64,000 nucleotides of DNA from a virus (IMGVR_UViG_3300024283_000014:1885-65884); one strand, 5' to 3'. Positions 38,259 to 61,861 are shown, counted from the stretch's first letter. The notes: generated by a model not told the origin, from the letters alone. Program-made: numbers and translations.

Positions 38259-38263
38259 ATCTA

Positions 38264-38293: not shown

Positions 38294-38493
38294 TATCGTA
38301 ATCCCGGTTCCATGCAATCCGGGCAATCACATTCATATCTAGGTTTACGGGGATAATTTACAATTATGCTACTTTCCTTACCCCGTTCTTTGCGAGGAAG
38401 GTAACAACCTGCCTCTTGGCAATTATGTTGAGTCTTTTCTTTACTAATCTGGCCATTTAATTTCTGTTCTAACCATGTTAATATTCCTCGCAT
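38293..38493 (-). CDS. small Cys-rich hypothetical protein
   Basis: 66 aa; start uncertain. Confidence 0.45.
   Translation of the reverse strand: MRGILTWLEQKLNGQISKEKTQHNCQEAGCYLPRKERGKESSIIVNYPRKPRYECDCPDCMEPGLR
38378..38397 (-). repeat. dispersed motif A copy
   Basis: ttaccccgttctttgcgagg. Confidence 0.9.
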
Positions 38494-38505
38494 AAAACGG
38501 GGTCA
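38486..38505 (+). repeat. dispersed motif A copy
   Basis: cctcgcataaaacggggtca. Confidence 0.9.
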
Positions 38506-42423: not shown

Positions 42424-42477
42424 TCGTTATTGTTCCTCTTTGTGTGTGAATTTGTTGACCAAGCCCGGCCAACATTA

Positions 42478-42506
42478 TTTAGACCCTCGGGGAGAAGGTT
42501 TTATTA
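42478..42506 (-). promoter_or_regulatory. putative phage ECF-sigma promoter
   Basis: GTAATAA-N15-GTCTAAA upstream of ssb. Confidence 0.7.
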
Positions 42507-42761
42507 CATTTTAGACAAAATTTTGCCCATCCGGTATCGGGCTTGTTGAGGAACGCCTCGCACCTGTTGTCAACGGGGTGGAGACAGAGCAGGATTTTTA
42601 ACATTCCTCGCATCCTATTGAAGCAAACCGGATGGGCAAACTTGATTAAATAGAAGCAGCTAACATTGTCGCAGTTAACGCAAGCAAAAATTCTTCATCT
42701 TCTCTGCTTTTCTTTTCTTCTATTTCAATTTCTTTTTTCTTCTTTTTTTCCTCTTCGTAAC

Positions 42762-43777: not shown

Positions 43778-43780
43778 ATA

Positions 43781-43810
43781 TTTAGACCCTCCGAAACTAG
43801 GTTTTATTAC
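43781..43810 (-). promoter_or_regulatory. putative phage ECF-sigma promoter
   Basis: GTAATAA-N16-GTCTAAA. Confidence 0.75.
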
Positions 43811-44564: not shown

Positions 44565-44909
44565 TTAGTGTGCAGGTTTCATTTCTGGACTACCATACAT
44601 ATAGTTAGTCCCGCCTGATTCGTGACTTTTCCAAGTAACTAGCAACTTCCAACCTTTGTCTTCGAGGAATTTCTTTTGTCGTTCAAATTCCTCTGGCCTT
44701 GGGTTGTATCGCTTTGAATCCGATATGATGGCTATGGTATCAAGAGCCTTGCCATAACTGGCCCATTGCCCCTCTTGCGCTGTTCCCAGCTTCACCATGT
44801 CCTCAAACAAGGCTGTTTGTTTCTTGCTAAAGTCGTCTGCCTTGCCTAGACAACCTATGTCATGCACTGTTTTCAAACCACAGCATCCTGGTAACATTGT
44901 TGTTCTCAT
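44565..44909 (-). CDS. GNAT-derived mini-protein (PGCC family)
   Basis: MLPGCC...KFLEDKGWKLLVTWKS...YMYGSP; start 44909 by ATGA coupling. Confidence 0.6.
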   Translation of the reverse strand: MRTTMLPGCCGLKTVHDIGCLGKADDFSKKQTALFEDMVKLGTAQEGQWASYGKALDTIAIISDSKRYNPRPEEFERQKKFLEDKGWKLLVTWKSHESGGTNYMYGSPEMKPAH

Positions 44910-45115
44910 GAACGCCCTCCTAGCATTCCGTCTGACTTCCAACCATCTTTAACAGGCTGATTACCCCGTTCTACGCGAGGATAATTACAAGGTAAATCTA
45001 GTCTTGTTTTAGTCGCTCGCCCATCATTGGCTCCACATGCTACACAAACTTCATCATATAAACTAGAATCTGAATATCTTGTTTTATGACTAGGATGTAC
45101 CATTTTTCTCTCCAT
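44906..45115 (-). CDS. small Cys-containing hypothetical protein
   Basis: CVAC...C. Confidence 0.5.
   Translation of the reverse strand: MERKMVHPSHKTRYSDSSLYDEVCVACGANDGRATKTRLDLPCNYPRVERGNQPVKDGWKSDGMLGGRS
44961..44980 (-). repeat. dispersed motif A copy
   Basis: ttaccccgttctacgcgagg. Confidence 0.9.
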
Positions 45116-45383
45116 CCCGGCTAAACTTCTCCGGAAGAACTTCTAAACTAGTAATGCACCCAATAGGAATAGATAAGTCATCAAGGCTTGCGCTCTTTTG
45201 ATCCATCGAATGTGATATACTTATACATTCCTTTGAGGTGCCCGTTAAAAAGCCGAGGGATTTTATGCGCCCCGGAACCCGAGGTGGAGTTTCGTGGTTA
45301 TAAGACCAGCCAAGCAGACTCTTGGCGTCGTCCCATTGAATTAGAACTGCTGTGCCTTGCTTGAGTTTCATTTTTGTATTCAT
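45090..45383 (-). CDS. conserved small phage protein (Sm-like beta pattern)
   Basis: IQWDDA...GW...SLGFL...IPIGCI pattern. Confidence 0.65.
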   Translation of the reverse strand: MNTKMKLKQGTAVLIQWDDAKSLLGWSYNHETPPRVPGRIKSLGFLTGTSKECISISHSMDQKSASLDDLSIPIGCITSLEVLPEKFSRDGEKNGTS

Positions 45384-45397
45384 AGGGAGTAAGGAGA

Positions 45398-45628
45398 TTA
45401 CTCAGGATATTCTATGCAAGACAACATACGTGTCTTTTCGGCGTCAGAAAGCTTATTATAAGCTTCTTTGCCTATAGCGGCACGAAGGTCTTTTTCTTGT
45501 CGAGTTAAAGGGATACTACGCCGGATATGGTAGAGCCTTTCGGCCTCGGCTTCGACAAGTGCGGTTATTTTTTCCGCATCTAAAAACTCAGATGCGCGTT
45601 CAGACACTTCGACTGTAATAGATTTCAC
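45398..45628 (-). CDS. hypothetical protein
   Basis: GTG start 5 nt after the -10 element. Confidence 0.6.
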   Translation of the reverse strand: MKSITVEVSERASEFLDAEKITALVEAEAERLYHIRRSIPLTRQEKDLRAAIGKEAYNKLSDAEKTRMLSCIEYPE

Positions 45629-45633
45629 ATACC

Positions 45634-45663
45634 TTTAGACCCTCCAAAAGAGAAAATTATTAC
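45634..45663 (-). promoter_or_regulatory. putative phage ECF-sigma promoter
   Basis: GTAATAA-N16-GTCTAAA. Confidence 0.75.
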
Positions 45664-45815
45664 TAAATATTTTTGTCTCTCTTTCTAGCCTATACTCAAT
45701 ATACCCCCTCCCCCCTCCCCCTATTAAATAGAGATATAAGAGAGAGATACATACTAATTACAAAAGATGAACGCAATCTGTATTGTGTCTCGGGCTAACG
45801 TTCGCTCCCAAGCTT

Positions 45816-46037
45816 TTACTTAACACAAGATATTGCTGCACCATCATGGTACACAGAACGGAACGCATAACAGCGAGTACCTGTTTCTTTGTCTTGCACA
45901 AAGAAGAAACAAGCCGGAGTTTGTTCGCCTGACTCTACACAACCTTCAAATTTAATCCAAATTTTTGACTGATCTGTTTCTGCGCTACCTAATATTACCG
46001 TAGCACATAAGCCGATTGCTAAAAGCAGTTTTTTCAT
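45816..46037 (-). CDS. small exported protein
   Basis: MKKLLLAIGLCATVILGSA signal peptide; 4 further Cys. Confidence 0.7.
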   Translation of the reverse strand: MKKLLLAIGLCATVILGSAETDQSKIWIKFEGCVESGEQTPACFFFVQDKETGTRCYAFRSVYHDGAAISCVK

Positions 46038-46044
46038 ATAATCT

Positions 46045-46064
46045 CCTCGCCTAGAACGGGGTCA
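46045..46064 (+). repeat. dispersed motif A copy
   Basis: cctcgcctagaacggggtca; complement supplies the RBS of 46037. Confidence 0.9.
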
Positions 46065-46283
46065 GGCTTCTCGGCCATGCCCAATATGCAAATACCCGCA
46101 AGCCGAGCAAAGATACAACTCCAACAACTCAGGCTTATGAGGATACCTGTTTGTGTCGTTTTGAGCGGCCAGCAAGTATTGTTGTCCGTTTAAGGTATCG
46201 AGTTTTACTTTGAATCGACACTTTCTCAAGTGTGATCTAAGTCTGTTTCTCTCTTTGCATGTCATAGCCCCAACTCTTCCCAA
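46062..46283 (-). CDS. small zinc-binding protein
   Basis: YLCSACGYLHIGH. Confidence 0.6.
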   Translation of the reverse strand: MGRVGAMTCKERNRLRSHLRKCRFKVKLDTLNGQQYLLAAQNDTNRYPHKPELLELYLCSACGYLHIGHGREA

Positions 46284-47257
46284 CGTTCTTTGAAGTTGAT
46301 TGAAGGATCAATTTGCAATGGTTTTAAACCCGGTTCAAGTACCTTTTCACTTACACGAAGCGCATTAACATCTTTGGATTTATAAGTGTTAAGCCACTTG
46401 TGTAAACCAGCAAAACTTGTACAATCATGAAGAGCTTGAAATGCACCTACAGGATCAGATGCGGCTAATTTTGCTGCTGTAAGGCATAGAAAAGCGATCC
46501 TCGGATCATACAACCAACTTGCCATCGTCCGATATTCCATGTGCCCGTTGCAATCTCGAACATCTCCGAATTGGCCATAACCATAATTGATAGCTTGATA
46601 TGATGTTCGTCGCTGGTTGCTTTCATTTTTCGGGAGAATGTCTAAATGTTCAAGAACTTTGGTCAAAGCATCTAATGCTCTTGTCACTTCGATTCCTTTG
46701 GTATTAAGCCTATAGCCATCTCGGGTTCCTAAATTGCGAGAAACGCCTTCTTGAAAGCTATTGAATCCAAAGTGAATATGTCCTCCGAGGCAATCGTTGT
46801 TACAAATTGCTCCTGCTCTCAAAGAAGCATCTGGTACTTTGGTATTCTTTATCAAGGTTTGAAGTTTGCGAACCAATGCAAATACACCCTTGGACGGTTC
46901 GGGACGATATTCAGCCACGCGTCCTCCATGATCGTATCCAACTGGCCCATATTGAGGAAAATATCTCGAAGCCGGAATTGTCTTTTTATCTGCACCTAGC
47001 AGCATAAATTCAGGATCGCATCCGACTCTAAAATTGTTTATCATAGAACCTTCGTCTTCAGGAGTTCCCAAATTAGGAACTATTGGAGGTGGAACAGGAG
47101 CAAGAACAGGGGCTTCAACGGCTGGAACGGCAAGGATTTGTTCGGCTGGATTTCCTTGAACTGCAATCCATTCACCTGGGTCTGGAATATTAGCTTGAGG
47201 ATAAATTGCAATCCCATTATTGTAATACATCCAGTAGAGTTGATTCAGATTAGGCAT
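46262..47257 (-). CDS. phiEco32-like COOH-NH2 ligase type 2 (paralog 1)
   Basis: VGCDPEF, AEYRPEP, GGHIHFG, HMEYRTMASW. Confidence 0.9.
   Translation of the reverse strand: MPNLNQLYWMYYNNGIAIYPQANIPDPGEWIAVQGNPAEQILAVPAVEAPVLAPVPPPIVPNLGTPEDEGSMINNFRVGCDPEFMLLGADKKTIPASRYFPQYGPVGYDHGGRVAEYRPEPSKGVFALVRKLQTLIKNTKVPDASLRAGAICNNDCLGGHIHFGFNSFQEGVSRNLGTRDGYRLNTKGIEVTRALDALTKVLEHLDILPKNESNQRRTSYQAINYGYGQFGDVRDCNGHMEYRTMASWLYDPRIAFLCLTAAKLAASDPVGAFQALHDCTSFAGLHKWLNTYKSKDVNALRVSEKVLEPGLKPLQIDPSINFKERWEELGL
47061..47080. repeat. palindrome B copy (1 mismatch, intragenic)
   Basis: ggagttcccaaattaggaac. Confidence 0.7.
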
Positions 47258-47768
47258 TTCTTAATTTCCCTCTAAGCCTGTTCCAGCGTTGTAAAGCCGT
47301 ATTGCGGGTTATTTTAAGTTTCTTCCCAATGGTATTAAAATCTTCGCCTTCGATTACCATTCTAAATAAAGTATGGTCATCGCCATCGAGTATATCAAGA
47401 AACCCAACTACATCAATTCGCGCATCTACGTCAGGCGTTTCAGTTTGCAACGTTTCTTCGAGACTGGTTTCATAAAGTTCCTTTCTTTTTCTAAGAAGTC
47501 TATTGCATTCATTGACAATGATTCGATACACCCAAGTCGAAAATTGACTTTTGCCATTGAATGAATTTGATTTACCAATTACTCGCCAAACAATATCGTT
47601 TATCAGAGGGCCAAATTCACTCCGATAATCAGGTAGTCGCTGCCAACAAATCGTTCTTGCAAATGTCTCAAGTTTTTTAACGAGTTCAAATAAGGCGGCG
47701 TCCTTCTGTTCTCCGGTTGATTCTTGCCATGTTTTAAAAACCGGATTTACATCTAAATCGGTCTGCAT
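47250..47768 (-). CDS. ECF-type RNA polymerase sigma factor
   Basis: Region 2 SFNGKSQFSTWVYRIIVNEC; region 4 HTH EGEDFNTIGKKLKITRNTALQR. Confidence 0.9.
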   Translation of the reverse strand: MQTDLDVNPVFKTWQESTGEQKDAALFELVKKLETFARTICWQRLPDYRSEFGPLINDIVWRVIGKSNSFNGKSQFSTWVYRIIVNECNRLLRKRKELYETSLEETLQTETPDVDARIDVVGFLDILDGDDHTLFRMVIEGEDFNTIGKKLKITRNTALQRWNRLRGKLRNA

Positions 47769-47782
47769 AGGTTTTGTCCAAA

Positions 47783-48331
47783 CTACATATGATCTGTTGC
47801 ACGCAACGGATTTGTCCTTGAACCACAGGCTTCATTCCTTGCGTGTACTTTCCACAATTCGCTTGCTGGGATAATAGTGCCGTCCGATATATCAGGTAAT
47901 CCACTGTCTGAGGATCGTATCCCCCTAGACCCTTCACCAAGTAACGCTTTAATTTTCGGAGCAGGCAAAGCGAGTATTGGCCGAACAACAGGACGCGACG
48001 TAACATTGATTGCTTTAACTCGGATAGGCGTACTCTCATATCCAATTGCCATCGCATGAACTTTGTAATCGGCTTGTCCGGTGAAATCTCTTTGTACACT
48101 AAACAGAGCGTAACGACCAATGCGACCACTGCGAAGCCGAATAAGAATTTCATCGCCAACACAAATATAGCCTCGTGTCTTAATCGTGAAGCATGCATCA
48201 TAGTTGTCTCCATAATCGAAAGAGGCCCAATATTCTCGGGATGGCCGAGTAAAATCAATTGTTTTTATGCTAATCAAGCTAGTTGGCCGTAATGTCAACA
48301 GGTTTTTCAACAGTTTGAGTTTCTTCCACAT
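47783..48331 (-). CDS. hypothetical protein
   Basis: 182 aa; preferred over the overlapping frame 47734-48258. Confidence 0.5.
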   Translation of the reverse strand: MWKKLKLLKNLLTLRPTSLISIKTIDFTRPSREYWASFDYGDNYDACFTIKTRGYICVGDEILIRLRSGRIGRYALFSVQRDFTGQADYKVHAMAIGYESTPIRVKAINVTSRPVVRPILALPAPKIKALLGEGSRGIRSSDSGLPDISDGTIIPASELWKVHARNEACGSRTNPLRATDHM

Positions 48332-48535
48332 TGATTACGTCTCCTACGTCCCCATTTCGGGTTGAAAGTTCTTCGTAAAAGCAATCCATGCAACATGGAT
48401 AGATAAAGCGATCACTTCGTACCATAATGGGATAAATGAACCCATGTCCGGCATTGCAATACCATTGGCTACTTCGCCCTTGGATATATCGAACAGAATT
48501 AGCTCCCGGAATTGCTTTAGAGCTGTTCGTCAATG
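48279..48535 (-). CDS. small Cys/His-containing protein
   Basis: 3' part of track ORF 48279-48680 (WYCNAGH...CCMDC); start approximate. Confidence 0.45.
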
Positions 48536-48963
48536 ACGAGTTCTTCGTCGTTGATTGGTGGAACGGGTTGTCCACCACCCCAACCACCTTGGACGACGTT
48601 GTATTGCATGATTGGGTTTGCTCCGGGTATTCCCGCAACCGCAGGGGCATGTCCTCTTGGCTGATTAGCTCTTGGGGCATTTTGTCCTCCTCCTAAAAAT
48701 ACACCATTACCAATCGGCAATGGGTGTCCAAAAATCTTTCTCAAAGCCTGTCTATATTGGCTTTTTCCTTTGCGTAAATTTCGACGCTCTCTGCCTACCC
48801 AGAGTTTAAATCTATTACTTGGTGGTATTGTTTTAAACGCTCGAACTGCATCCTGTATAGTTCGCACAGGCATACCAGATAATTGCATTAGTGTGTTTTT
48901 AGCTTTTTGGCCTTTTTCAATCGACAATCCATTCAGCAAAAGAATTCGCACATGCGATGGCAT
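48517..48963 (-). CDS. hypothetical protein with basic N-domain and low-complexity acidic tail
   Basis: GGAGG RBS; directly downstream of the ATP-grasp gene. Confidence 0.65.
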   Translation of the reverse strand: MPSHVRILLLNGLSIEKGQKAKNTLMQLSGMPVRTIQDAVRAFKTIPPSNRFKLWVGRERRNLRKGKSQYRQALRKIFGHPLPIGNGVFLGGGQNAPRANQPRGHAPAVAGIPGANPIMQYNVVQGGWGGGQPVPPINDEELVIDEQL

Positions 48964-48974
48964 TGATTTCCTCC

Positions 48975-49760
48975 CTAGGCTAAATAGCCTACAGACAATA
49001 CTTGTTGTTTCTTTGGAAGAGAATTTAATTTGCCGTCTTTGAACCCATTTTTAGCCCAACGTTCAATGCAGCTAACCAACGAAGCCATTCCTTGACGAGG
49101 TTGACCTTGTGTTCCGGGAGCCGTATTGACTTCAAGGACGTAATATTGCCCATTTGTACTCAATAATATATCTACTGCTCCAAAATCGAGTTTCAAAGCG
49201 GCAACAGCTTGAATTGCAATTTTCTTCAATTCATCATCAACATCATCTGGTGTGATAAATTGATAAGCATAACCATTTGCCCAATTCCATACATCTCGAT
49301 TCCGGCCTCGTCTTCCAAGCCTGTTTGCATAGGTTAAAACTTTCTCGTAGGTTGCAAGAGTTTTATCCCGAAAGGCCCAAACCCGATATTCATTTTGCTT
49401 CGGCACCAGTTGCGTGTAGTAATCACTTAATCTATCCCCTCGCAACAAAGGACGAACTCGATAAGCAATAATATCTCGCCCACGAGTGTGATGAAATTGC
49501 CGTCCAAAGATCGGCGGATTCAATTCAGCTGCGCTTCTTGAAAATGGAATTGTCGGAACCCCGGCGTCAGCGAGTTTTACTAACTCCTGATATTTATCTT
49601 GATTTCCGGCATTCGCATTAAGTGTAGGCAAGTTTTCTTCTCGACTATGATACCCGTAGTTAACAATGCCTTGTGGATTGTGGCTCAACAAACCTTTTTC
49701 TTCCAACATTTGCTGAAGTAATCTTCCAGTTGGCCCGCTATTTGCCCTTAGTCTTAGCAT
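48975..49760 (-). CDS. ATP-grasp ligase (RimK/phiEco32-like)
   Basis: EYRVWAF, LDFGAVDIL, YVLEVNTAPG; ATG at 49760 with AAGGA RBS. Confidence 0.9.
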   Translation of the reverse strand: MLRLRANSGPTGRLLQQMLEEKGLLSHNPQGIVNYGYHSREENLPTLNANAGNQDKYQELVKLADAGVPTIPFSRSAAELNPPIFGRQFHHTRGRDIIAYRVRPLLRGDRLSDYYTQLVPKQNEYRVWAFRDKTLATYEKVLTYANRLGRRGRNRDVWNWANGYAYQFITPDDVDDELKKIAIQAVAALKLDFGAVDILLSTNGQYYVLEVNTAPGTQGQPRQGMASLVSCIERWAKNGFKDGKLNSLPKKQQVLSVGYLA

Positions 49761-50751
49761 TGGTTCCTTTCGCATCAACAAGCAACAATGGTGATTTGCA
49801 GGATGCACAGGTGAATTTTTTCAAGTCTTTGAGTTGCGCCTGTGTGACATTAAGATAGAGGCCACAACCAGGGCACTCTACTAAATCCACAGGACGATCA
49901 TCATAGAAGCGCACACGACTTCCATGATATTGAGAATGGCAAGTATAATTAACAGGTTGGAAGTTATATGTAATCTTCATCTTTTGGTGCCATTCCAACC
50001 AATCATCTTCTCGGCTTTTAACCCCGTTGCGTGGCTTACTTCCAAGACACCACGCTGAATGATCTTCCATTGTAATCATGCAATAATCATTCGGTGTCAT
50101 GTCTCGCATCAAAATGCCCCAAGCGAATTTAAAAGGGCGAAGTGCTTTGTAAATTGGCCCCGTTTCGCTTGAAAAATACAAATGATGTTTTGTCGCGGCA
50201 AGTTCAATCGGGTTTCCACTTCGTCCCAAAAGCAGCTTACCGGGATATTTTGTACTGATTGCAGCAAAAGCCGCATTGCCGCTGCATTTTTCAAGCAATT
50301 CTACCGCCTTTGGAGTAAGTCCATTAGCATCAAGAATCGCCCTGAGAATATCGCTGTCTGTTTCTGCGCTTCTTTCTAACTTGAATTGAGTGAACAATTG
50401 TGCATCATTGTGAATGACTCCATTGTGGATAACCGCAGTAACATCTTTCCACATTGGGTGATTGTTGCGATTATCTCTTGGAGTGCCCTGAGTAGCCTTT
50501 CGGGTATGGCCAAGAACAGTCAATGTTTTATCATTGAAATGTTTGTCCATAAACGTTTTGTAAATATTGCTTCCAATAAATTCAAAAGGCGGAACGTCGT
50601 TTTTGCAAACCTCAATCGTTCCATCTTCTTGTTGGAGAGCTACTCCTGTAGCATCTATGCCTCGATTTTGATTATTTAAAATCAAAAGATCGACCGCACT
50701 ACGTTCAATTGGTTCGTTGGTGAAACGGCGAATGCCGCATATTCCACACAT
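49738..50751 (-). CDS. class II (Ntn) glutamine amidotransferase with C-terminal zinc ribbon
   Basis: MCGICG, RGIDATG, GHTRKAT, NNHP, HNG, TDSD; C-terminal CPGC...CASC. Confidence 0.92.
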   Translation of the reverse strand: MCGICGIRRFTNEPIERSAVDLLILNNQNRGIDATGVALQQEDGTIEVCKNDVPPFEFIGSNIYKTFMDKHFNDKTLTVLGHTRKATQGTPRDNRNNHPMWKDVTAVIHNGVIHNDAQLFTQFKLERSAETDSDILRAILDANGLTPKAVELLEKCSGNAAFAAISTKYPGKLLLGRSGNPIELAATKHHLYFSSETGPIYKALRPFKFAWGILMRDMTPNDYCMITMEDHSAWCLGSKPRNGVKSREDDWLEWHQKMKITYNFQPVNYTCHSQYHGSRVRFYDDRPVDLVECPGCGLYLNVTQAQLKDLKKFTCASCKSPLLLVDAKGTNAKTKGK

Positions 50752-50765
50752 GATGGTTTCCTTTT

Positions 50766-52322
50766 CTACCTGAGGTGAATAATATCGTGCATATTGCCGA
50801 ACAAATTCAAAGTTCCAAATTCTCGTTTTTTGGGTGTTGGTTTAATGTGCGATTTCCATTGAGAATATGAATCTGCTCTGACATCAGAAATCTTCCAAAA
50901 TGGAAAAATGGTTTCAAGTAACAAGCGGCGACATTCTGTGAAATTCTTGGTTTCTCGGCTTTTAAAATTGGAATAAATACAATTAGCGGAAGAACCAGAA
51001 TATGTTTTTATCAAGTTTCCGTAATTTTTCTTCCAATCAACTGGTAATTTTTTGGCCAACGATTCTGGAATCATAATCCAGTGCCGAGCACCTTCGCGCC
51101 AATCTGCGAAAGAATAAGATTCATCCGCCCGATATTGTACCACGTCCCACAATAATTCCCCTAATCCTTTTGCTCCGCGTGTTTCTGTTCTATTGATAAC
51201 CATCTCGTATCCCGGCGGAGGAACCAAAGGTGCCCAAGTTGGAGTTGGAATACGATCAGAAAGTGGTTTCTGATTCAACAGATATTGAAACATTTCCTCT
51301 ACATCTTCATTTGCCGGTTTAATAGATGTAGGGATAAAGGCGATAGGTATTTTTGATTCCTTAATCTCGCTTGAAATTCCCCAACGAGATTTAAAATCTC
51401 CGCCCATATGACTTGGAATTTTACGAACTACCATCATCAGAGCCAATCTCGCGTCATCATCAACATCTTTGAAATAAGAAAAAATATTCTTAAGTCGTTG
51501 ATGCAAACGTCCCAGATCATTCAACGGCCCGAAAGCATGAAACAATTGTGGACTATGCACAGCCAACTTGCTTAGAGTTAAAATGAGAAACGTCAATTCC
51601 GGGCTGTCTAACCAACTCGGAAATGTCCGATACTCATATCCGTGCATTTGAAGCCTGAAATCACCCGGCATCCCGTAATGCTGATTATGTTGGTCACCTT
51701 GTCTACGACGTGCTATTTCTCTCTGCTGGTAGATATTCAAACGACACAATTCGTCACTTACAACATCTAAAGCAGCAATTTCCATGTTTCGATTAGGTCG
51801 TTTACGTCCGAAGTGAACATGTCCTCCGAGTCCATCTCCAGCTATGAATACTCCTGCTTGCCAATGGCACACAGCAGCATCAGATTTAAGGATGGCTAAC
51901 CATTTCAAAGTAGTCCAGATACTAGCAGTAACATGCAATGCGCTTCGACTTGGATAAGGGCGAATCTCTGTTAATCGCCCGTTGTTATCCATTCCAAAGG
52001 CCAATCCTTGTGCCAAACGCAAATGGTGTGCATCAATACGAACGCCATGCAGCGGATCAGTAAAAATAAATTCAGGATCAGCTCCGATCTTAAAACGATT
52101 TACATATCGTCTTTGAGATGAGAATTCGGCAGGGATAGTTAGCAGTTTTGCAAACCATCTATCCATCCGGGACTCAGGTACATTGTACCCAAAAGGCAAA
52201 ACCTCGTTGAGGTGTTCTAGCCTATAAAGTCCCTGTTGGATAGCCAGTCTCTTAAACGCCTCGTGTTGTTCCTGAAATTTCATTTTAATACACGACCCAA
52301 TTTGATCTTCCGCAATCTGCAC
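50766..52322 (-). CDS. phiEco32-like COOH-NH2 ligase type 2 (paralog 2)
   Basis: IGADPEF, TEIRPYP, GGHVHFG, GYEYRTFPSW. Confidence 0.9.
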   Translation of the reverse strand: MQIAEDQIGSCIKMKFQEQHEAFKRLAIQQGLYRLEHLNEVLPFGYNVPESRMDRWFAKLLTIPAEFSSQRRYVNRFKIGADPEFIFTDPLHGVRIDAHHLRLAQGLAFGMDNNGRLTEIRPYPSRSALHVTASIWTTLKWLAILKSDAAVCHWQAGVFIAGDGLGGHVHFGRKRPNRNMEIAALDVVSDELCRLNIYQQREIARRRQGDQHNQHYGMPGDFRLQMHGYEYRTFPSWLDSPELTFLILTLSKLAVHSPQLFHAFGPLNDLGRLHQRLKNIFSYFKDVDDDARLALMMVVRKIPSHMGGDFKSRWGISSEIKESKIPIAFIPTSIKPANEDVEEMFQYLLNQKPLSDRIPTPTWAPLVPPPGYEMVINRTETRGAKGLGELLWDVVQYRADESYSFADWREGARHWIMIPESLAKKLPVDWKKNYGNLIKTYSGSSANCIYSNFKSRETKNFTECRRLLLETIFPFWKISDVRADSYSQWKSHIKPTPKKREFGTLNLFGNMHDIIHLR

Positions 52323-52992
52323 ATGTTACTTCTTGGTCTCGTTCCAATCTCCATGCAGGCAGAAATGGTTCACCACAATGCGAGCATCTGAATCGCCCAT
52401 TTATAAAGGCTACATATTGTCGTGGTGGAACAATGCTTTTGGGAAGCCTTCTTAAATCAATTATTTCAACGGTCTTGTTTTTCTTAACCAATCCCGGTAC
52501 TTCTTCAGCCCCGGCAGGTACAGCTCGTTGATTTTCATCTTGCAGCATCCTTTCATAAGGAGTATATATTGCGAATTTCCTATCCAATATCATCCATTTG
52601 GGAAATACTTTGCCTGTTACCCAAGGCGCAAAGAAATCGGAACTGGTTGTATGAAATGGATAATAAAAATAACAAACTGCACTGCTTTTTGCGGTAACTT
52701 TTGCATAATTTTTTGGCGTAGAAAGATAACCATATCGAAAAGCCCCGAGTCGATCAAATTCCCACGCTTGAAACAGGCCAGCATGTCGAGGCAAAAGCCA
52801 ACTTAACATCATGGCAATATCCCGATTAGGCTTTCCGAAATAATCAAAAGTTTTACTCTTGTCTATTCCTGTGCCATTGAATAGAATCTTCCATCTTGTA
52901 GGAAATCGCCCCGGAAATGGTTTAACCTTTTCTCGACCGGTTATAACCATCGGAAAACCAGGTTGATTGAACAATCGCCTTAAGTCTTGCAT
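52285..52992 (-). CDS. hypothetical protein with C-terminal zinc ribbon
   Basis: CSHC...CADC. Confidence 0.7.
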   Translation of the reverse strand: MQDLRRLFNQPGFPMVITGREKVKPFPGRFPTRWKILFNGTGIDKSKTFDYFGKPNRDIAMMLSWLLPRHAGLFQAWEFDRLGAFRYGYLSTPKNYAKVTAKSSAVCYFYYPFHTTSSDFFAPWVTGKVFPKWMILDRKFAIYTPYERMLQDENQRAVPAGAEEVPGLVKKNKTVEIIDLRRLPKSIVPPRQYVAFINGRFRCSHCGEPFLPAWRLERDQEVTCADCGRSNWVVY

Positions 52993-52995
52993 ATA

Positions 52996-53304
52996 TCAAT
53001 GACCCCGTTTTTTGCGAGGAGATTGAATCCTTAATCCTCGACTTAACAGCCAAATTGGTCTACCATCCTCTTCGCTCTTGAACGTCGAAATCACCTGGAA
53101 GCCCTTTTTCAAGAAGGCGGCCTTGGCCTTGAGCTGATCCGAATTGACGGTGGCGAGATATTTATGCTTTCGATCAAGATCACGCAAGGAGTCTTGAAAA
53201 TATTGCCATTCGCTTTTGTAATTTTCTTTCTCCCAATCGTTGTCCCCTTCGTAATCATAGGGATGACTCTCCAACTCCGTTAATGCGCAACACCCGAGGC
53301 ACAT
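52996..53304 (-). CDS. GNAT-derived mini-protein (PGCC family)
   Basis: CLGCC...ATVNSDQ...FLKKGFQVISTFKS...GRPIWLL. Confidence 0.6.
   Translation of the reverse strand: MCLGCCALTELESHPYDYEGDNDWEKENYKSEWQYFQDSLRDLDRKHKYLATVNSDQLKAKAAFLKKGFQVISTFKSEEDGRPIWLLSRGLRIQSPRKKRGH
53000..53019 (-). repeat. dispersed motif A copy
   Basis: tgaccccgttttttgcgagg; encodes the last codons PRKKRGH. Confidence 0.9.
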
Positions 53305-53305
53305 T

Positions 53306-54142
53306 TTAGATATCTCCGTCTTGATATTCTGCTGCCCACATTGATTGCCATTGGGCGTGAGTTTCGTTGTGATTCACATTATCCTCGAACATCTGGCATT
53401 GAGAACACCAGATTCGGCCAAGAGATTCTACGCCTGTTGTATCCGGCGAGATGGCTACAGTTGCTCTTCTTCGCATCTTAGCCAGTTGAGCCTCAAGCGA
53501 TATGTAGCGTTCAAGGTCAAATTTCCATCTAATCTCACAAAGCGGAGCCTTGCAAATAGGAACGCCCCATTTTCCCTTGATGTGTCTCGTCCCTTTGCAT
53601 ACAATGCAAGTCGATACCGACAACAGCAGGTTGTAGCACTTAACTAATCGCTCCGGACACCTCGATCCATTGATCGCTTTCGAGTCGTCATTTTGATGGG
53701 CGATTCTTTGTTCCCTGCTATAGGTAGCGAATCTGCAAGCTCGGCATATCCCCATAGTGGCAGATATATCTCGGGTTCCAACCCAATATCTGTATTCGCC
53801 TTCCTCAAGGTTCCCTTTGGGAATAATAAGATTCCTATCTACGTCTCCTTGTTTGCGCCAATCACCCGGTTTCGAGCCTTCAAGAGGGGCATGATCTCGA
53901 TGGAAATACTCCCCGCCTCGAAAAACGCCTTCGAGTTGTTGCTGGCCCAGTATGAAAGTCACATAAACCTGTTTGCCGCAAACTGCACAAGGTCTTTCTA
54001 CCCCCGGCGTCCAATTTCGGGTAGGATTATAACTGCCTCCATTCCTCAACCAACTCTTGATCGGGAACTTAGATAGCTGTGCCCCGGATGGCATATAACG
54101 TTTTACGAACCAAGTTGGAAGGATCACAGTTTCACCATCCAA
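53306..54142 (-). CDS. multi-zinc-finger hypothetical protein
   Basis: Four or more CxxC pairs. Confidence 0.7.
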   Translation of the reverse strand: MDGETVILPTWFVKRYMPSGAQLSKFPIKSWLRNGGSYNPTRNWTPGVERPCAVCGKQVYVTFILGQQQLEGVFRGGEYFHRDHAPLEGSKPGDWRKQGDVDRNLIIPKGNLEEGEYRYWVGTRDISATMGICRACRFATYSREQRIAHQNDDSKAINGSRCPERLVKCYNLLLSVSTCIVCKGTRHIKGKWGVPICKAPLCEIRWKFDLERYISLEAQLAKMRRRATVAISPDTTGVESLGRIWCSQCQMFEDNVNHNETHAQWQSMWAAEYQDGDI

Positions 54143-54594
54143 ATATCCAATTCATGCCCTGTACGAGCATTTGTGAATTTTCTTCCATTCTGCCATCCCG
54201 TTTTAGCCAAAAGATGCCCTTCTGTGGTGTTATCCGCTCTAACCGTAGCCATTGCCAGTGAATAACCTACTTCCTTGGCGACTTTCATTCGGATTTTCAG
54301 GAGGGTTTCGCCTAATCCCATCCGCCTAAACCTCGGTTCAACCTCAACATGATGGAATATCACTACCCCTCGGCATCCGGGCATAGGGAGCATTGCAAAC
54401 TTCCCTATCAGAAAGAATCTGTCTGCGCTGTTAAAACCAGTTAAGATATAATTCCCCGTGTAAGCCTCCCGATGAACTATGACTCGTTCCGCTTTTGTGT
54501 AAACACGGATTACAGGGTCGTCTAACTCTCGTGCCAAGGCTTGCTTTGTTTGTTTTACGAGTTCATCAGACAGCGACATTCCTAAAATCGGCAT
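54124..54594 (-). CDS. GNAT-family N-acetyltransferase
   Basis: VEVEPRFRRMGLG motif A, ATVRADN...LLAKTGW; ATG at 54594 follows the motif A-derived GAGGA RBS. Confidence 0.85.
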   Translation of the reverse strand: MPILGMSLSDELVKQTKQALARELDDPVIRVYTKAERVIVHREAYTGNYILTGFNSADRFFLIGKFAMLPMPGCRGVVIFHHVEVEPRFRRMGLGETLLKIRMKVAKEVGYSLAMATVRADNTTEGHLLAKTGWQNGRKFTNARTGHELDIWMVKL

Positions 54595-54598
54595 AATT

Positions 54599-54619
54599 CC
54601 TCGCCCTAAAACGGGGTAA
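54599..54619 (+). repeat. dispersed motif A copy (7-nt spacer variant)
   Basis: cctcgccctaaaacggggtaa. Confidence 0.8.
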
Positions 54620-54974
54620 ACACTCCATTCCCCTGCCCTTTCGAGCAGGGGATTTTTTCGCAGGAGGGAGCCAAGCTCCACTACGAGAGTTAAATAGCAA
54701 ATTGAGCTTATCGAGCGACTGCACATGAAACGAGGAACGTTACACTCGGAACACATGTAGCATTGCTATCGTGTCGTGGGTGGCCTTAGCCACGCTAGAC
54801 TATTTCGCTCTAGATTCCCTTATTTGATCGAACAAATCCTTTGCGAGCAGATGGAGTTGCCATACATACTCAAGCTTAGGCACAAAACACCGTTTTGCGG
54901 TTCAATCAAGGAAATCTTGATGAGGCGTTCCTCTGCCTCTGTTATTAGACACTCAAAGTGAGTGCCTAATCTCT

Positions 54975-55262
54975 TTACAAATGGCAAGTCAAAATATGCA
55001 CTTTGCCTTGAATTCCTTCGTAAATATCTACGACTTTAAACCCTGCCTCTTTAAGCAAGGCAATGTTCTGAGGATCGACACTGATGGCAAAAATGCAACG
55101 TTTGCCATTGTCAACCATCATCTCATCTCTGTATTGTGGAGATGCTTTGCTTGTACAAAGCCGATTGATTTCGTCGAGTGTTACCTCAGATTCTTCTCCA
55201 TGTTCTCCAAAACTAAAGAGAATAGCTGATGTGCAACAACCGGGCATGTTTTCAATTCTCAT
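54975..55262 (-). CDS. GNAT-derived mini-protein (PGCC family)
   Basis: MPGCC...LLKEAGFKVVDIY. Confidence 0.6.
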   Translation of the reverse strand: MRIENMPGCCTSAILFSFGEHGEESEVTLDEINRLCTSKASPQYRDEMMVDNGKRCIFAISVDPQNIALLKEAGFKVVDIYEGIQGKVHILTCHL

Positions 55263-55627
55263 TGTTTCTCCTCAGGTAATATGAAACTTGGGCTTCCCCA
55301 AAGTTCCATTTTATAATTGCCGTGTGCGCCGGGAAATTTACCCAGCAATTTCCATCCTTTTGAGTTAAGAAAAGATACCACTTTGTCGTAATAAGGCGCA
55401 CTATATCCAGAATCTTTATGCGCAACACTACATAAAGATGCCGTAATATACCGTCCCATGAACGGCCCTTTAGTGCCTTTACCTTGACAAAGCGTATCAA
55501 AGTTTTTGCATCGACTCAATTCATAATCATTGGAGCTTCCAATTTCATAAATAGCTCGTATGAATTGAAGCGAACAACCACCTTGTTCTTCGCCCTCAGC
55601 CACCTGCCTAATCTCTATTGCTTCCAT
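55259..55627 (-). CDS. GNAT-derived mini-protein (PGCC family)
   Basis: GGCS...SFLNSKGWKLLGKFPG...MELWGSP; start 55627. Confidence 0.55.
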   Translation of the reverse strand: MEAIEIRQVAEGEEQGGCSLQFIRAIYEIGSSNDYELSRCKNFDTLCQGKGTKGPFMGRYITASLCSVAHKDSGYSAPYYDKVVSFLNSKGWKLLGKFPGAHGNYKMELWGSPSFILPEEKQ

Positions 55628-55740
55628 CTTCTCCCTCTTGTTTCGGTTTAGGCTCAACAAACATCCGTTCTTCTAACCTGAAAGGAGTATTGCGTTCCGC
55701 AAGGCGTTTAAACACTGCAAGCATGTCAGCGGGTTCCATT

Positions 55741-56082
55741 TTATGCCTCCTCATGCACGATATCTAACAAAGTAGAAATGTAAACCAAGATATCATCCAA
55801 GTCTTCCAATTGTTTTGTTGAAGTTTCGCGCAAGAAGATATCTTGACGAAGTTTTCGATCAATCAAGTCTCGTGCGTCTTCCACTTTCTCAAGAACTTCT
55901 CGAATGACTCGTCTTGGTATTTTCATAAAAAGGGTTTTCCCCTGCTTCGCCGCGTCATCTCTGAAGCGTATGCAAATCTTTGCCTCATTTTCGATTCGCA
56001 CCCTCAACAAAATCTTGTATCTTAGTTTAGATTCCGAGAGACCTAAAACCATATATAAAAGGCTCACGCCTTTTTGTCTCAA
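55741..56082 (-). CDS. hypothetical protein
   Basis: 113 aa helical; start uncertain. Confidence 0.5.
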   Translation of the reverse strand: MRQKGVSLLYMVLGLSESKLRYKILLRVRIENEAKICIRFRDDAAKQGKTLFMKIPRRVIREVLEKVEDARDLIDRKLRQDIFLRETSTKQLEDLDDILVYISTLLDIVHEEA

Positions 56083-56337
56083 TTTAGGGTTATTCTCGAA
56101 AGAATGTTCCTAAACCAAAACGGATAACCGCATTTAACTGCGATTTGGTTTCTGCCTCGTCCCTAGAGGATACAAGTTCCTTTGTCAACTCCTCAAATCA
56201 AAAAAGAAAAACATCTCTAGAAAAAGTTGAATTTCGCTTTCGCACCTTCAACTGGCCCTTGGAGCCAAAATTTCATCGAAATGTTGTAAACAAAGCCCGT
56301 TTCGCTCGGTTGTCGGAGCGAAGCAGGGAAACTTGGT

Positions 56338-56718
56338 CTAACACATAAGTCGGCGTGCTTCTAATTCTCTTTGCCAAGACGCTTTTCCTGCTGATACTGG
56401 TTTATTGTGAATTTTCACCAATACGTCTAAGCATTCCACTCGTCCGCAATATCTTATGAAAGGAAGTTGCCTTGCATTCGGCCACCACACAAATGCAGGT
56501 CGTCCGCAACCTTTGCAACTTTGCATAGGAACCCAACCTCGTCCTTCGCAAAGTTCGCATTTCATGAGCCTGCGGTGTCTGTTGTTAAAATCTTTCTTTG
56601 TTCCTCGACACTGAGGACAAATGGTAATTGGTTTAATTTGCATGTAAATCTTTAACCATTTCTTACACTTGTTAAATGAAGCCAAGATGCATCGACGTTT
56701 CGGCAATGAGAAAGCCAA
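56338..56718 (-). CDS. DnaJ-type zinc-finger-like protein
   Basis: CPQCRGT...CELCEGRG...CKGCG. Confidence 0.65.
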   Translation of the reverse strand: MAFSLPKRRCILASFNKCKKWLKIYMQIKPITICPQCRGTKKDFNNRHRRLMKCELCEGRGWVPMQSCKGCGRPAFVWWPNARQLPFIRYCGRVECLDVLVKIHNKPVSAGKASWQRELEARRLMC

Positions 56719-58031
56719 TTTTTATCAAATTGCCAATTTCCTGCGATATCATGTGGATAAGGAATAACCGATTCCAGCCCGTTTTCAAATGCAAGTAATG
56801 CTTTCTTTGCTCCTGCGTCGATTGCCGACGGGGAATAAATACCCCACATCGACTTAACAATTCTTGTAAGCGGCGCAAGATTTTTCTTAATCAATTTTCG
56901 TGCGCCTTGCACATCGCAGCTATTGATTATATCTCTGACTTCTTTTTCATCTGCAAGCCAGCATAAATTGTAAAGACCTGATTCAGCGAATCGTACAGTT
57001 GCTCGCGCAAGGTCAAATACAAGCATGGTAATTGCCGGATGGCAGAGCCAGAAATTCGAGAGAACCCTGTATTCAATTCCGTGAGAAGGGAGCCGAAACT
57101 CTCCCGCACGACCATATGTGCGGCGTCTTTCGGGGTTATCAATTTCTGCTGCAAGGCTAACTCCAACGACCCCCAAAACGCCGTCGAGTGCTCGCACAAT
57201 TTGTTCAATTGCTGGAGCCGTAAAACCTCGTGTGAATCCAAGGTGGATATGGCCTCCGGCGCAGCGATATTTGTATTGTCTGGCATCTGGTATTCCATCT
57301 CCCGGATCATCGTAGATGTTGTAACTTCGTGAACAACGAAATTGAATGTGTTTGTCGTCAGCGTTCTTCAGAACGCTATCTGGAAGTTCAATGGTGTTTT
57401 TGATAGTCAATTTGGCTTGTGGGTCTTTCTTTTGTGCAAATGCAAGAATCGTCTTAAGTCCAATTCTCGTCCCATCGTGCAAGGTTTCGAGACAATTTTT
57501 TGCCCACGGCGCAAATTCAGCCTGTGCACCATCCCAATAAATAGGAACTTTTAAAGGAGAAGCATTAGAATCTACAACCCCCCATGATGCGCCTTCAACT
57601 TCGCTTTCTCCGCGTGGATGACGTTCTAATAGCCATCTCTTCGCTTGTAATCTTGAAGTTTCTTCATCGGGTAAAAATTCCCATGCCGGAAAGATTGAAC
57701 CATCTCCGTGTTCCACGAATATCTCAGGATCACAGCCGCTGCTCATTGATTTGCTAGGAAGAGGAAATTTAGCTGCAAGGAAGGCATCTGCAACGAGGGT
57801 TTGAAGCTTTTTATCTTCGACCAATTCAAATTCAGTGGTATTTACTTGATCAGGCAACGAAGTGGGAATTACTTCTTCGCCACTCACATTAAAGATAGCA
57901 GGTAGAATCGTCTTCTGGTCTGCGCTGTATTCCATTCCTGCCATTACTCCCAAGGCATTTAATCCGTATGCCCTCGGGAGTTTTATTACAGACCCCGGCG
58001 TTATTTCCTTTAAACTACATAGCTTCGACAT
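56652..58031 (-). CDS. phiEco32-like COOH-NH2 ligase type 2 (paralog 3)
   Basis: SGCDPEIF, DGAQAEF, AGGHIHLG, YGRAGEFR..SHGIEYRVLSNFW. Confidence 0.9.
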   Translation of the reverse strand: MSKLCSLKEITPGSVIKLPRAYGLNALGVMAGMEYSADQKTILPAIFNVSGEEVIPTSLPDQVNTTEFELVEDKKLQTLVADAFLAAKFPLPSKSMSSGCDPEIFVEHGDGSIFPAWEFLPDEETSRLQAKRWLLERHPRGESEVEGASWGVVDSNASPLKVPIYWDGAQAEFAPWAKNCLETLHDGTRIGLKTILAFAQKKDPQAKLTIKNTIELPDSVLKNADDKHIQFRCSRSYNIYDDPGDGIPDARQYKYRCAGGHIHLGFTRGFTAPAIEQIVRALDGVLGVVGVSLAAEIDNPERRRTYGRAGEFRLPSHGIEYRVLSNFWLCHPAITMLVFDLARATVRFAESGLYNLCWLADEKEVRDIINSCDVQGARKLIKKNLAPLTRIVKSMWGIYSPSAIDAGAKKALLAFENGLESVIPYPHDIAGNWQFDKNWLSHCRNVDASWLHLTSVRNG

Positions 58032-58252
58032 AGTTTATCCTCGCAACAGGGAGCCTTGCGGCTCATTGCAGGGAAACTACAAAATCACATCGCGTACAAA
58101 AGAATAACCAAACCAAAAAATCACACAAAGAACAAATGTTCCAAGAAGAATCAAAAAACCTATGGCCGCGACAGGTTCTGTTATACAAAGACTAAATATG
58201 CTCAATACTGCAATAATTGCACCTAATCCACCTAAACAACACAAGAATGTTT

Positions 58253-58630
58253 TCATTTTGCCTTCTTTTGTTCCTGCATAATAGCTTTTTGTTTTTGAAT
58301 CAAACTCGCTTGTACTCGCTTATGGGCTTCAATTTGCCATTCTTCACAGTCGTGCATGGCTTTTCTAAAGCCTTTGTCATCAGCCGGATACATACCGAGT
58401 GTAAAGTCCCAAGGCCCAAGTTGTTCGTTACGTTCAGCATGAGCATGTGCTCGCCATTGATCTGTTGATGTTCCCGGAGCAACAAGAACAGCTTCGTTCA
58501 CTGTGCAACCAAATTTGGTTACAGTCTCAGGATGGAAATTGGCCCACATGTCTTCCGAAAATCCTCCGGGAGGAACAGGCCGACCTTGTGGATGTGTTGA
58601 AACAAGTAGCAATAACAGTAATATTTTCAT
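58253..58630 (-). CDS. exported hypothetical protein
   Basis: MKILLLLLLVS signal-like N-terminus; GGAGG RBS. Confidence 0.65.
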   Translation of the reverse strand: MKILLLLLLVSTHPQGRPVPPGGFSEDMWANFHPETVTKFGCTVNEAVLVAPGTSTDQWRAHAHAERNEQLGPWDFTLGMYPADDKGFRKAMHDCEEWQIEAHKRVQASLIQKQKAIMQEQKKAK

Positions 58631-59160: not shown

Positions 59161-59346
59161 TCATGTTGTGCGCTTTCCAGCCCGCCTTCTAACTTCGGCG
59201 GATTGTTCTTCAACCTTGCGCGAGAACTCATCCGAAAGAGGATAGTCCAAATCCATACCTTGCCATGTTGCAATGAATAGTTCTTCGTGGCAGTTTGGAC
59301 ACGTGCCGTCCAATTCGAGCCGAGTTCCGCAATCTTCGCAGATCAT
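59161..59346 (-). CDS. small zinc-ribbon protein
   Basis: MICEDCG...CPNC. Confidence 0.65.
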   Translation of the reverse strand: MICEDCGTRLELDGTCPNCHEELFIATWQGMDLDYPLSDEFSRKVEEQSAEVRRRAGKRTT

Positions 59347-59369
59347 GTTGTGCGCTCTCCAGCCTCACA

Positions 59370-59537
59370 TCAGTAAGGCTTCAGGCTTTTAGTGTGGTAC
59401 CAGTGTTCGTCCGTCACGAATTTTACCACGTAACCACCAGCACGTTTATCGGTTACGGTACCGACACACTCGCAAGATTCTCCCCGCGTTCCCGTGCGAG
59501 GCGCTAATACTTTGTCACCAATGTTGAATGTTTTCAT
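59370..59537 (-). CDS. 55-aa SH3-like protein
   Basis: MKTFNIGDKV...VGTVT...YVVKF...HWYHTKSLKPY; hand translated. Confidence 0.6.
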   Translation of the reverse strand: MKTFNIGDKVLAPRTGTRGESCECVGTVTDKRAGGYVVKFVTDEHWYHTKSLKPY

Positions 59538-60010
59538 GCTGGGCGCTCTCCAGCCAGCCAGAAGGTAAATTCAGTTATTTTGGCTGATACTTTTTCAAAG
59601 CACGCTATGTTTTGGCGCAAAGCATCTTCTAGTTCCGTTATTCGCGCTTTCAGTCCCTGTACCTGCGCTTTCGTTGCCGCATGTGATTCTATTTCCTGAA
59701 TCAAGATTTTCTTCTCGTCGAGCAAACACGACTGGTCGCCGAAACGCAGATATTGGAGCAGCAGACCATCAAAAAAGCTTGTATATCGTCTGCTGGCTGG
59801 TTGCAATACACCATCACGGACTTGGAGAGCGAATGTCGCACCAGCAACCAATAATCTACACCGCTCACACCTGGGGTTGATTATGGCTTTTCCGCACCCA
59901 ATTTCCTTGTCGTGTCCCGGTATTCCGATCTGGTGTTCTGATTGCGAAAGGAATTGTTCAAATAAATCAAACAATGAAGCCTCGGACTTGGCTAGTTGGT
60001 GTTTATTCAT
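59534..60010 (-). CDS. hypothetical coiled-coil protein
   Basis: 158 aa, coupled. Confidence 0.6.
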   Translation of the reverse strand: MNKHQLAKSEASLFDLFEQFLSQSEHQIGIPGHDKEIGCGKAIINPRCERCRLLVAGATFALQVRDGVLQPASRRYTSFFDGLLLQYLRFGDQSCLLDEKKILIQEIESHAATKAQVQGLKARITELEDALRQNIACFEKVSAKITEFTFWLAGERPA

Positions 60011-61535: not shown

Positions 61536-61555
61536 TGACCCCGTTCTATGCGAGG
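61536..61555 (-). repeat. dispersed motif A copy
   Basis: tgaccccgttctatgcgagg. Confidence 0.9.
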
Positions 61556-61861
61556 AAGAATTGCACACCCCTCACACACAGGTCGTTTGTACGACTTGTC
61601 CTTTTTATTCAACTCCCAATGACTTGCGATGTTCAATGGATGAACATAACAATGCTTAAGAGTTGCTGATTCGATGGGCAAGTATTCAAGTTCAATGTGA
61701 TACATAAGCTCTCTCTACGGGTGAAACCCGGCCTCTAGGTAGTAGCCTCTACGAAGGTGAGCAGCCGATTTCATCCCTAGACATAGTTTACAATAAAAAA
61801 GGAACAGGAATTTTAATCCTGTTCCCTTCTTCCACGTGACCTCTGGCCTTGCGGCAGAGTT

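Follow-up and report, generated by a model that had tools for sequence, protein, structure and literature searches.

Phages of the phiEco32, LUZ24-PaP3 and RIO-1 types carry a cassette of amidoligase genes, represented by gp86-gp77 in phiEco32 and gp24-gp30 in PhiCHU, which was reportedly predicted from sequence by Iyer, Abhiman, Burroughs and Aravind in 2009. In phiEco32, the cassette includes a PF14395 ligase (gp86), an unknown protein (gp85), a PF12224 ligase of the Amidoligase_2 family (gp84), a glutamine amidotransferase (GATase) of 676 amino acids (aa) (gp83), an ATP-grasp protein (gp80) and a gamma-glutamyl cyclotransferase (GGCT; gp77), and the PhiCHU genes follow the same order. A 97-kb phage from IMG/VR (L018/G010) likewise has a PF14395 ligase, an unknown protein, a PF12224 ligase, a GATase of 527 aa and an ATP-grasp protein. 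Here, we analysed a gene island at positions 44,565-58,031 of a 64,000-nucleotide (nt) stretch of viral DNA (IMGVR_UViG_3300024283_000014; hereafter, the window), which comprises bases 1885-65884 of a 65,884-bp IMG/VR virus record rated as 100% complete by CheckV. The island is a clade-specific, enlarged form of the phiEco32/LUZ24-type phage amidoligase cassette.

The island resembles the phiEco32-type cassette in its gene order, in its placement among early/middle and replication genes, and in three components, i.e., a PF14395 ligase (LIG3, the counterpart of gp86), a second ligase beside a class II GATase, and a RimK-like ATP-grasp ligase downstream. A GGCT gene is present in some members of the clade. 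On the other hand, the second ligase of the island is not an Amidoligase_2 but a PF14395 paralog (LIG2), which occupies the Amidoligase_2 slot directly upstream of the GATase gene. A third ligase (LIG1), coupled to a gene for an extracytoplasmic-function (ECF) sigma factor, is added. The GATase is composed of 337 aa including a zinc ribbon, as compared with 517-676 aa in the phiEco32-type cassettes. Finally, this genome has no GGCT, and a GNAT and half-GNAT mini-proteins are added. The relation to phiEco32-like phages that had been pointed out in the first-pass annotation of the window was upheld by LIG3 and by the matching order. The same annotation had considered that an identical architecture might already be characterised; the layout proved to be a variant of the cassette described in 2009 and annotated in many phages, for which the literature yielded genome annotations only and no functional study.

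The island and its clade

The plus strand of the window carries the genes for the large terminase, portal and major capsid proteins at 2.9-33.7 kb, and the minus strand carries those for a family A DNA polymerase, a primase/helicase, a Sak4-like annealing protein, an exonuclease and many small proteins at 34-64 kb. The island is a part of this minus-strand gene block and lies upstream of the replication genes of this uncultured phage of about 66 kb. The main open reading frames (ORFs) in 44,565-58,031 are all on the minus strand, densely tiled and frequently overlapping. Every gene named in the first-pass annotation was found where it had been placed, on the minus strand and co-oriented with the embedded sigma factor gene, and the recommended family assignment by profile searches yielded matches to PF14395 for three ORFs, to RimK and to GATase_6. 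No match to the island was obtained by megablast against phage records, and the capsid protein has at most 32% identity to any entry of 50,697 phage records; a close cultured phage was not present among them.

The comparison was made with a clade set composed of this genome and nine IMG/VR relatives, two of which are fragments of about 62% completeness, the complete ones being 65-70 kb in length. Each of the nine relatives has exactly three PF14395 ORFs, of about 410-490, 470-520 and 250-390 aa. The order in the clade is LIG3, ZnJ, a variable segment, X278, X235, LIG2, GATase, ATP-grasp, one to several variable genes, sigma factor, LIG1 and, further downstream, Y97, where ZnJ, X278, X235 and Y97 designate partner and small proteins described below. 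A metagenome scan gave 43 further loci, and the contigs reaching far enough upstream of LIG1 keep the same order. The clade members are mutually only 36-64% identical, yet the enzymes are kept as orthologues (the GNAT in 7 of the 10 genomes). This retention across the clade argues for purifying selection on all three ligases. PF12224 was absent from this genome and from all nine relatives. A GGACT-type cyclotransferase (PF06094) gave no match in this complete genome, and was found in four of the nine relatives; in three of them (G004, G007 and G008), it is encoded by the ORF just upstream of X278.

The completeness of the genome also bears on the proposal that the island hypermodifies bases of phage DNA or RNA with amino-acid-derived groups, which was one of the products suggested in the first-pass annotation. 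In some viral contigs, genes for amidoligases and amidotransferases are found together with those for thymidine hypermodification (PMC8989533). However, PF00303, the thymidylate-synthase-like family that includes the dUMP hydroxymethylase type, is absent from this complete genome, which makes hypermodification of the thymidine type unlikely, and no kinase, aGPT-Pplase-like or other base-modifying family was detected among the island ORFs scanned (Pfam) or the larger ORFs elsewhere in the window (PHROGs). Base modification is thus disfavoured, and we regard it as very improbable.

Ligase lineages and the GATase-ATP-grasp pair

The three COOH-NH2 ligases of type 2 are encoded on the minus strand by LIG1 (46262-47257, 331 aa), LIG2 (50766-52322, 518 aa) and LIG3 (56652-58031, 459 aa). 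Their PF14395 scores were 89, 77 and 49 bits, respectively, against a cut-off of 25 bits, and LIG3 also matched phrog_3815 (3e-32). All three proteins have the GxDPE, GGH[IV]H and EYR motifs, so that the earlier description of three PF14395 ligases with intact motifs holds. In an alignment of 30 ligases from the 10 genomes together with phiEco32 gp86 and PhiCHU gp24, conservation reached 90% or more in every paralog at more than 20 polar positions, among them G-x-D-P-E, a second D and E, GGHxH, D, R, YG, R and EYR. LIG1-LIG3 are thus predicted to be ATP-dependent carboxylate-amine ligases. An activity assay of a PF14395 protein was not found in the literature, and the LIG1 profile had no match among the PDB sequences, i.e., no solved PF14395 structure is detectable by sequence.

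The three ligases were related to one another and to the known cassettes by a tree and by profile comparison. LIG3 matched PhiCHU gp24 (9e-20) and phiEco32 gp86 (6e-18) by blastp, and it was joined with both by hhalign (E 7e-28) and in a common clade of the tree with a support of 100. LIG1 and LIG2 were sister groups (tree support, 100; hhalign, 3e-44) with 32% identity, and both are similar to the only PF14395 ligase that the 97-kb phage has (hhalign E 1.5e-43). The tree is from a quick IQ-TREE run, of which the careful search was unfinished, and hhalign agrees on the relationships. On these comparisons, LIG3 is the counterpart of phiEco32 gp86 and PhiCHU gp24, and there are two old PF14395 lineages, of which that of LIG1 and LIG2 alone was duplicated, before the clade diverged. 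The triplication described in the first-pass annotation, which had itself called for a phylogeny of the paralogs, is therefore the wrong picture, because LIG3 belongs with gp86, and LIG1 and LIG2 with the ligase of the 97-kb phage.

LIG2 carries a conserved C-terminal extension of about 200 aa, and this part gave no match in the Atlas. That LIG2 might be a diverged Amidoligase_2 was considered and rejected (hhalign probability <1%), and LIG1 and LIG3 likewise showed no resemblance to that family at the same level. For LIG1, 161 homologues at E<=0.001 were found in public protein data, many of them on contigs of 65-68 kb; the 120 homologues listed are 33-64% identical to it, apart from a fragment of LIG1 itself. 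No match was obtained by tblastn of LIG1 against phages, and no relative by its profile against 185,579 prokaryote genomes.

The sister relationship of LIG1 and LIG2 and their 32% identity could mean that one or two of the ligases are redundant or dead duplicates and that the island has no function beyond that of the canonical cassette. The first-pass annotation had named dead or redundant ligases as the outcome that would overturn its view. Against this, all of the conserved polar positions are kept in 3/3 ligases and 10/10 genomes, the paralogs fall into separate orthologue groups that differ in length and extensions, and LIG2 replaces the absent Amidoligase_2 rather than being an addition to it. 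Redundancy is, in our estimation, a scarcely credible explanation.

The GATase gene (49738-50751, minus strand) encodes a class II, i.e., Ntn-type, glutamine amidotransferase. It matched GATase_6 (1.7e-14), and the family profile matched the glutaminase domain of GlmS (1xff) at 2.7e-24. The N-terminal sequence is MCGI, and the glutamine-binding R84, N110-G111 and D132/D134 are invariant, so that all of the residues recognising free glutamine or a free gamma-glutamyl group are kept. The assignment as a class II GATase made from the first reading is well supported by these matches. Motifs and coverage are shared with the GlmS glutaminase domain. However, the island protein has no fused synthase (acceptor) domain, as its glutaminase domain of about 220 residues is followed only by a C-terminal four-cysteine zinc ribbon of about 45 aa, in which C293, C315 and C318 are invariant and C296 is nearly so.

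The ATP-grasp ligase is encoded at 48975-49808 on the minus strand, and its true start is probably an internal methionine, giving a protein of about 245 aa. Its matches to RimK (2.7e-8) and phrog_2599 (1.7e-22) bear out the ATP-grasp assignment of the first-pass annotation. The invariant D197, E210 and N212 lie within RimK-type metal-binding motifs (DFGAVDIL...LEVNTAPG). The solved relatives with the best coverage were RimK (PDB, ~9e-8) and alpha-L-glutamate ligases, and both the catalytic motifs and the domain coverage are shared with RimK, the poly-glutamate ligase of ribosomal protein S6. The order of GATase followed by ATP-grasp is kept in 10/10 genomes. Moreover, a ligase adjoins the GATase, with at most two short ORFs between them, in both layouts, this ligase being PF12224 in the canonical cassette and PF14395 here. 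This adjacency despite the change of family is the best argument that the pair works together.

These two enzymes are also where the possibility of peptidoglycan modification has to be weighed. The island would then alter cytoplasmic peptidoglycan precursors by amidation of the stem peptide or by addition of extra amino acids, and thereby block superinfection or tune lysis. MurT/GatD provides a precedent, in which a ligase and a glutaminase carry out the glutamine-dependent amidation of the stem-peptide glutamate. The C-terminal motif of the ATP-grasp protein also matches D-Ala-D-Ala ligases (Ddl), but these matches span only about 45 residues around the Mg-binding motif, and the RimK-type matches are longer. 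In addition, none of the island enzymes falls within the Mur ligase or Fem families. Peptidoglycan modification is the role most often cited for the canonical cassette (PMC5498523; PMC10580990), which was named a "peptidoglycan modification cassette" (PMC5498523); however, the proposal still has the status of a hypothesis in the literature, and the function was described in 2023 as still to be explored (PMC10580990). We consider peptidoglycan modification unlikely.

Partner proteins, sigma factor and the proposed acceptor

Two proteins without a known family have orthologues in 10/10 genomes. X278 (53306-54142, minus strand) is a cysteine-rich protein with seven invariant cysteines (C133, C136, C162, C179, C182, C197 and C202) and a nearly invariant H149. 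Its gene is directly upstream of that of X235 in nine genomes, with one spacer ORF in the other one (L024). Although the core of its predicted model had a pLDDT of ~90, fold searches gave no credible match in the Atlas, nothing at E<=0.001 with Foldseek against the PDB, and a best Z of 3.3 with VIA. A word-indexed search gave just five relatives of X278. X235 (52285-52992, minus strand) is encoded directly upstream of LIG2 in 8/10 genomes, and a short ORF intervenes in L019 and L020. It has the conserved motifs PFPGxYPTR, YxGKP and EFDR, and its model had a pLDDT of 51. The X235 family comprised 447 clusters at 50% identity among 1.84 billion representatives, 258 of them at E<=1e-10; the 150 relatives listed are stand-alone proteins of 129-277 aa. 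No relative of this family was found in Pfam, PHROG or the PDB.

A third partner, ZnJ (56338-56718, minus strand), is a zinc-finger protein of 126 aa with CxxCxGxG motifs, whose matches to DnaJ_CXXCXGXG and Anti-TRAP were below the cut-off. Its gene overlaps the end of LIG3, and the orthologue stands directly after LIG3 in 8/10 genomes with a conserved cysteine pattern. The many zinc-finger ORFs reported from the first reading are real insofar as conserved cysteine clusters occur in X278, ZnJ and the C-terminus of the GATase, but the C-terminal zinc ribbon of X235 is present in only 2/10 orthologues, including the one of this genome. No similarity of X278 to X235 or to ZnJ was detected by hhalign. 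The three partners showed no similarity by blastp to phiEco32 gp85 or PhiCHU gp22, gp23 and gp25, and X235 and X278 showed none to gp85 or gp25 by hhalign, in which the gp85 profile was built from two sequences only.

The GNAT acyltransferase is encoded at 54124-54756 (minus strand), with its true start probably near 54594 (~156 aa). Its Acetyltransf_1 score of 28-29 bits exceeds the cut-off of 20.7 bits, six of the eight members of the family match Acetyltransf_1, and the alignment shows the RxxGxG acetyl-CoA loop (RRMGLG here) and a PGC motif, which agrees with the first-pass assignment. The gene is placed at varying positions in the genomes possessing it. The solved relatives nearest to the profile were acetyltransferases of the YncA/PA4866 type, which act on free glutamate analogues, with only the acetyl-CoA motif region aligned.

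The sigma factor gene (47250-47768, minus strand) encodes a protein of 172 aa that matched Sigma70_r2 (1e-6) and phrog_1740 (2e-10). The family profile matched Escherichia coli sigma-E at 1.5e-14 over positions 20-170 of 174, and SigW and SigH were matched too. By these matches, it is an ECF-type (group 4) sigma factor with the two domains sigma2 and sigma4, in accordance with the first-pass annotation. The stop codon of the gene overlaps the start of LIG1 by 8 nt. The sigma factor gene is directly 5' of LIG1 in 9/9 IMG/VR relatives, with a short and possibly spurious intervening ORF in L025, and in 22 of the 24 informative metagenome loci, where the usual overlap is 10-14 nt. In three unrelated layouts, the cassette has genes directed at RNA polymerase at its 3' end, that of the present island being the ECF sigma factor gene. 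In the 97-kb phage, a gene for a DksA/TraR zinc finger (L018:18385-18840) comes after the ATP-grasp gene, and in phiEco32, gp79 (L007:27602-27850), which we take to be an RNA polymerase inhibitor, is located between ATP-grasp and GGCT. The repetition of such neighbours may be a coincidence among early genes.

Taken together, the families encoded by the island suggest an ATP-dependent amide-bond system with several steps. The assembly line proposed in the first-pass annotation is supported to this extent by the intact catalytic motifs and the clade-wide orthologues, but not by the triplication on which it had been founded. The three glutamine-synthetase (GS)/GCS2-like ligases would each use ATP to activate a carboxylate and then link it to an amine, and the RimK-like enzyme would add at least one amino acid, most likely glutamate. 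The GATase may feed ammonia to the adjoining LIG2 or may trim gamma-glutamyl amides, and the GNAT may cap an amine. Combined, these enzymes could assemble an amide-linked chain of the glutamate type in the cytoplasm, amidate it and trim it. Our preferred reading, in which our confidence is evenly divided, is that this chain is built on a protein or peptide of the infected cell. The transcription machinery would be one candidate target, and X278, ZnJ and the zinc ribbon of the GATase would serve as adaptors. This reading is weakest as regards the identity of the acceptor. A protein or peptide is favoured because of the conserved zinc-binding features, the RimK-like enzyme and the RNA-polymerase-directed neighbours, all of which are weak arguments.

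Several observations weigh against a protein or peptide acceptor. No candidate acceptor protein was identified, and enzymes of these families are no less typical of the synthesis of small molecules and peptidoglycan peptides. The GGACT-type cyclotransferases of the relatives act on small gamma-glutamyl amines, and the substrates of the nearest solved relatives of the GNAT are free glutamate analogues. The adjacency of sigma factor and LIG1 is broken in L045, where the sigma factor gene is about 3 kb downstream of LIG1, and L050 has no sigma factor gene between ATP-grasp and LIG1; where the adjacency does occur, it may be plain synteny inside one clade.

The cyclotransferases and the GNAT relatives also count in favour of an alternative in which the island makes a free small molecule. 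It would be a short gamma-glutamyl or amidated peptide or an amino-acid conjugate, produced stepwise by the four ligases with N-acetylation by the GNAT, and would act as a metabolite, signal or inhibitor. Small peptides are classically made by ligases of the GS/GCS2-like and ATP-grasp types, and linked ligases frequently work in series (PMC4431377). The GATase, moreover, has retained the residues that accommodate a free alpha-amino and alpha-carboxylate group. However, an exporter, precursor-supply or self-resistance gene was not found in the island, the conserved zinc-finger partners are unusual in such pathways, and the GNAT match is confined to the acetyl-CoA motif. We judge a free small molecule to be a serious alternative, though appreciably less probable than a chain on a protein or peptide.

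A further proposal concerns the takeover of transcription. LIG1 is read here as translationally coupled to the sigma factor gene, in 22 of the 24 informative metagenome contigs. With its partners, it would attach tags of the glutamate type to the sigma factor or the host RNA polymerase, or amidate such tags there, X278 and ZnJ being adaptors and the half-GNATs with an N-terminal Cys-Cys (see below) being thioester carriers or decoys. In this specific form, the proposal is more doubtful still than peptidoglycan modification.

Small genes, repeats and significance

Four half-GNAT mini-proteins are encoded on the minus strand of the island, at 44565-44942 (125 aa, with LPGCCG), 52996-53304 (102 aa, N-terminal MCLGCC), 54975-55262 (95 aa, N-terminal MPGCC; orthologue in the closest relative, 2e-33) and 55259-55660 (133 aa). 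As the first-pass annotation had seen, they derive from a GNAT, in the sense that they form one family whose profile aligned to the C-terminal half of the island GNAT (hhalign probability 95%, E 3e-8). They have the PGC(C) motif of the GNAT but neither its N-terminal half nor its RxxGxG loop. Within the clade, they occur chiefly in the sub-clade closest to this genome, and they showed no similarity by hhalign to X278 or Y97. Y97 (45090-45383) is a small beta-rich protein of 97 aa without a Pfam match, which was found in 9/9 IMG/VR relatives by phmmer, in 8/10 genomes by blast clustering, and downstream of LIG1 at 15 metagenome loci.

The variable slot between ATP-grasp and the sigma factor gene is occupied here by genes at 48517-48963 (148 aa), with a weak winged-helix match (HTH_43, 24.5 bits, below the cut-off) and a homologue only in the closest relative, and at 47783-48331 (182 aa), with no Pfam or PHROG match and homologues in two relatives. 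A small cysteine-containing protein of 73 aa (46062-46283), whose gene overlaps the end of LIG1, also has homologues in two relatives. Y97 and these three genes are on the minus strand. Another small protein inside the island (45816-46037) has an apparent signal peptide and five cysteines. Beside the island, a single-pass hydrophobic protein of 59 aa (58077-58256) and a protein of 125 aa with a hydrophobic N-terminus (58253-58630) are encoded. By appearance, these three small proteins are exported or membrane-bound.

Three kinds of repeated sequence were observed. A motif of about 21 nt, TGACCCCGTTYTWTGCGAGGA, is located at 38378-38398, 38484-38505, 44961-44981, 46044-46065, 53000-53020, 54607-54626 and 61536-61557. 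It occurs in both orientations with a complementarity of up to 95%, and parts of the island are flanked by two of its pairs. One orientation places the motif inside minus-strand ORFs, where it encodes PR[KVI][KE]RG close to the C-terminal ends of small proteins. The motif is probably an element at the nucleic-acid level. A direct repeat of 32 nt, reading GTAATAA-N12-GAGGGTCTAAATA on the minus strand, is located at 38262-38293, 42476-42507, 43779-43810 and 45632-45663. A promoter function of this repeat was rejected, because three of the copies end 1-3 nt 5' of start codons (the other, 52 nt 5') and because it contains GAGGG, both of which fit a shared ribosome-binding leader. A repeat of 22 nt at 59161-59182, 59343-59364 and 59534-59555 coincides with three successive stop/start gene junctions, which belong to small zinc-ribbon ORFs upstream of the island. 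Sites resembling sigma-70 promoters and terminators in 44-60 kb were not above the level in shuffled sequence, and no Rfam family was matched in the whole 64-kb window.

The phiEco32-type cassette is present in hundreds of phages and has been known from sequence since 2009. The clade described here shows which parts are indispensable, i.e., two kinds of GS-like ligase, a glutaminase and an ATP-grasp enzyme, and which are exchangeable or optional, as Amidoligase_2 is replaced by a PF14395 paralog and the GGCT comes and goes. X278, ZnJ, X235 and the half-GNATs are new conserved partners and may provide handles for finding the target. Since the phage has no cultured host, progress would come through heterologous expression. 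If the transcription-takeover proposal were true, a phage would here control bacterial transcription by enzymatic means of a new kind.

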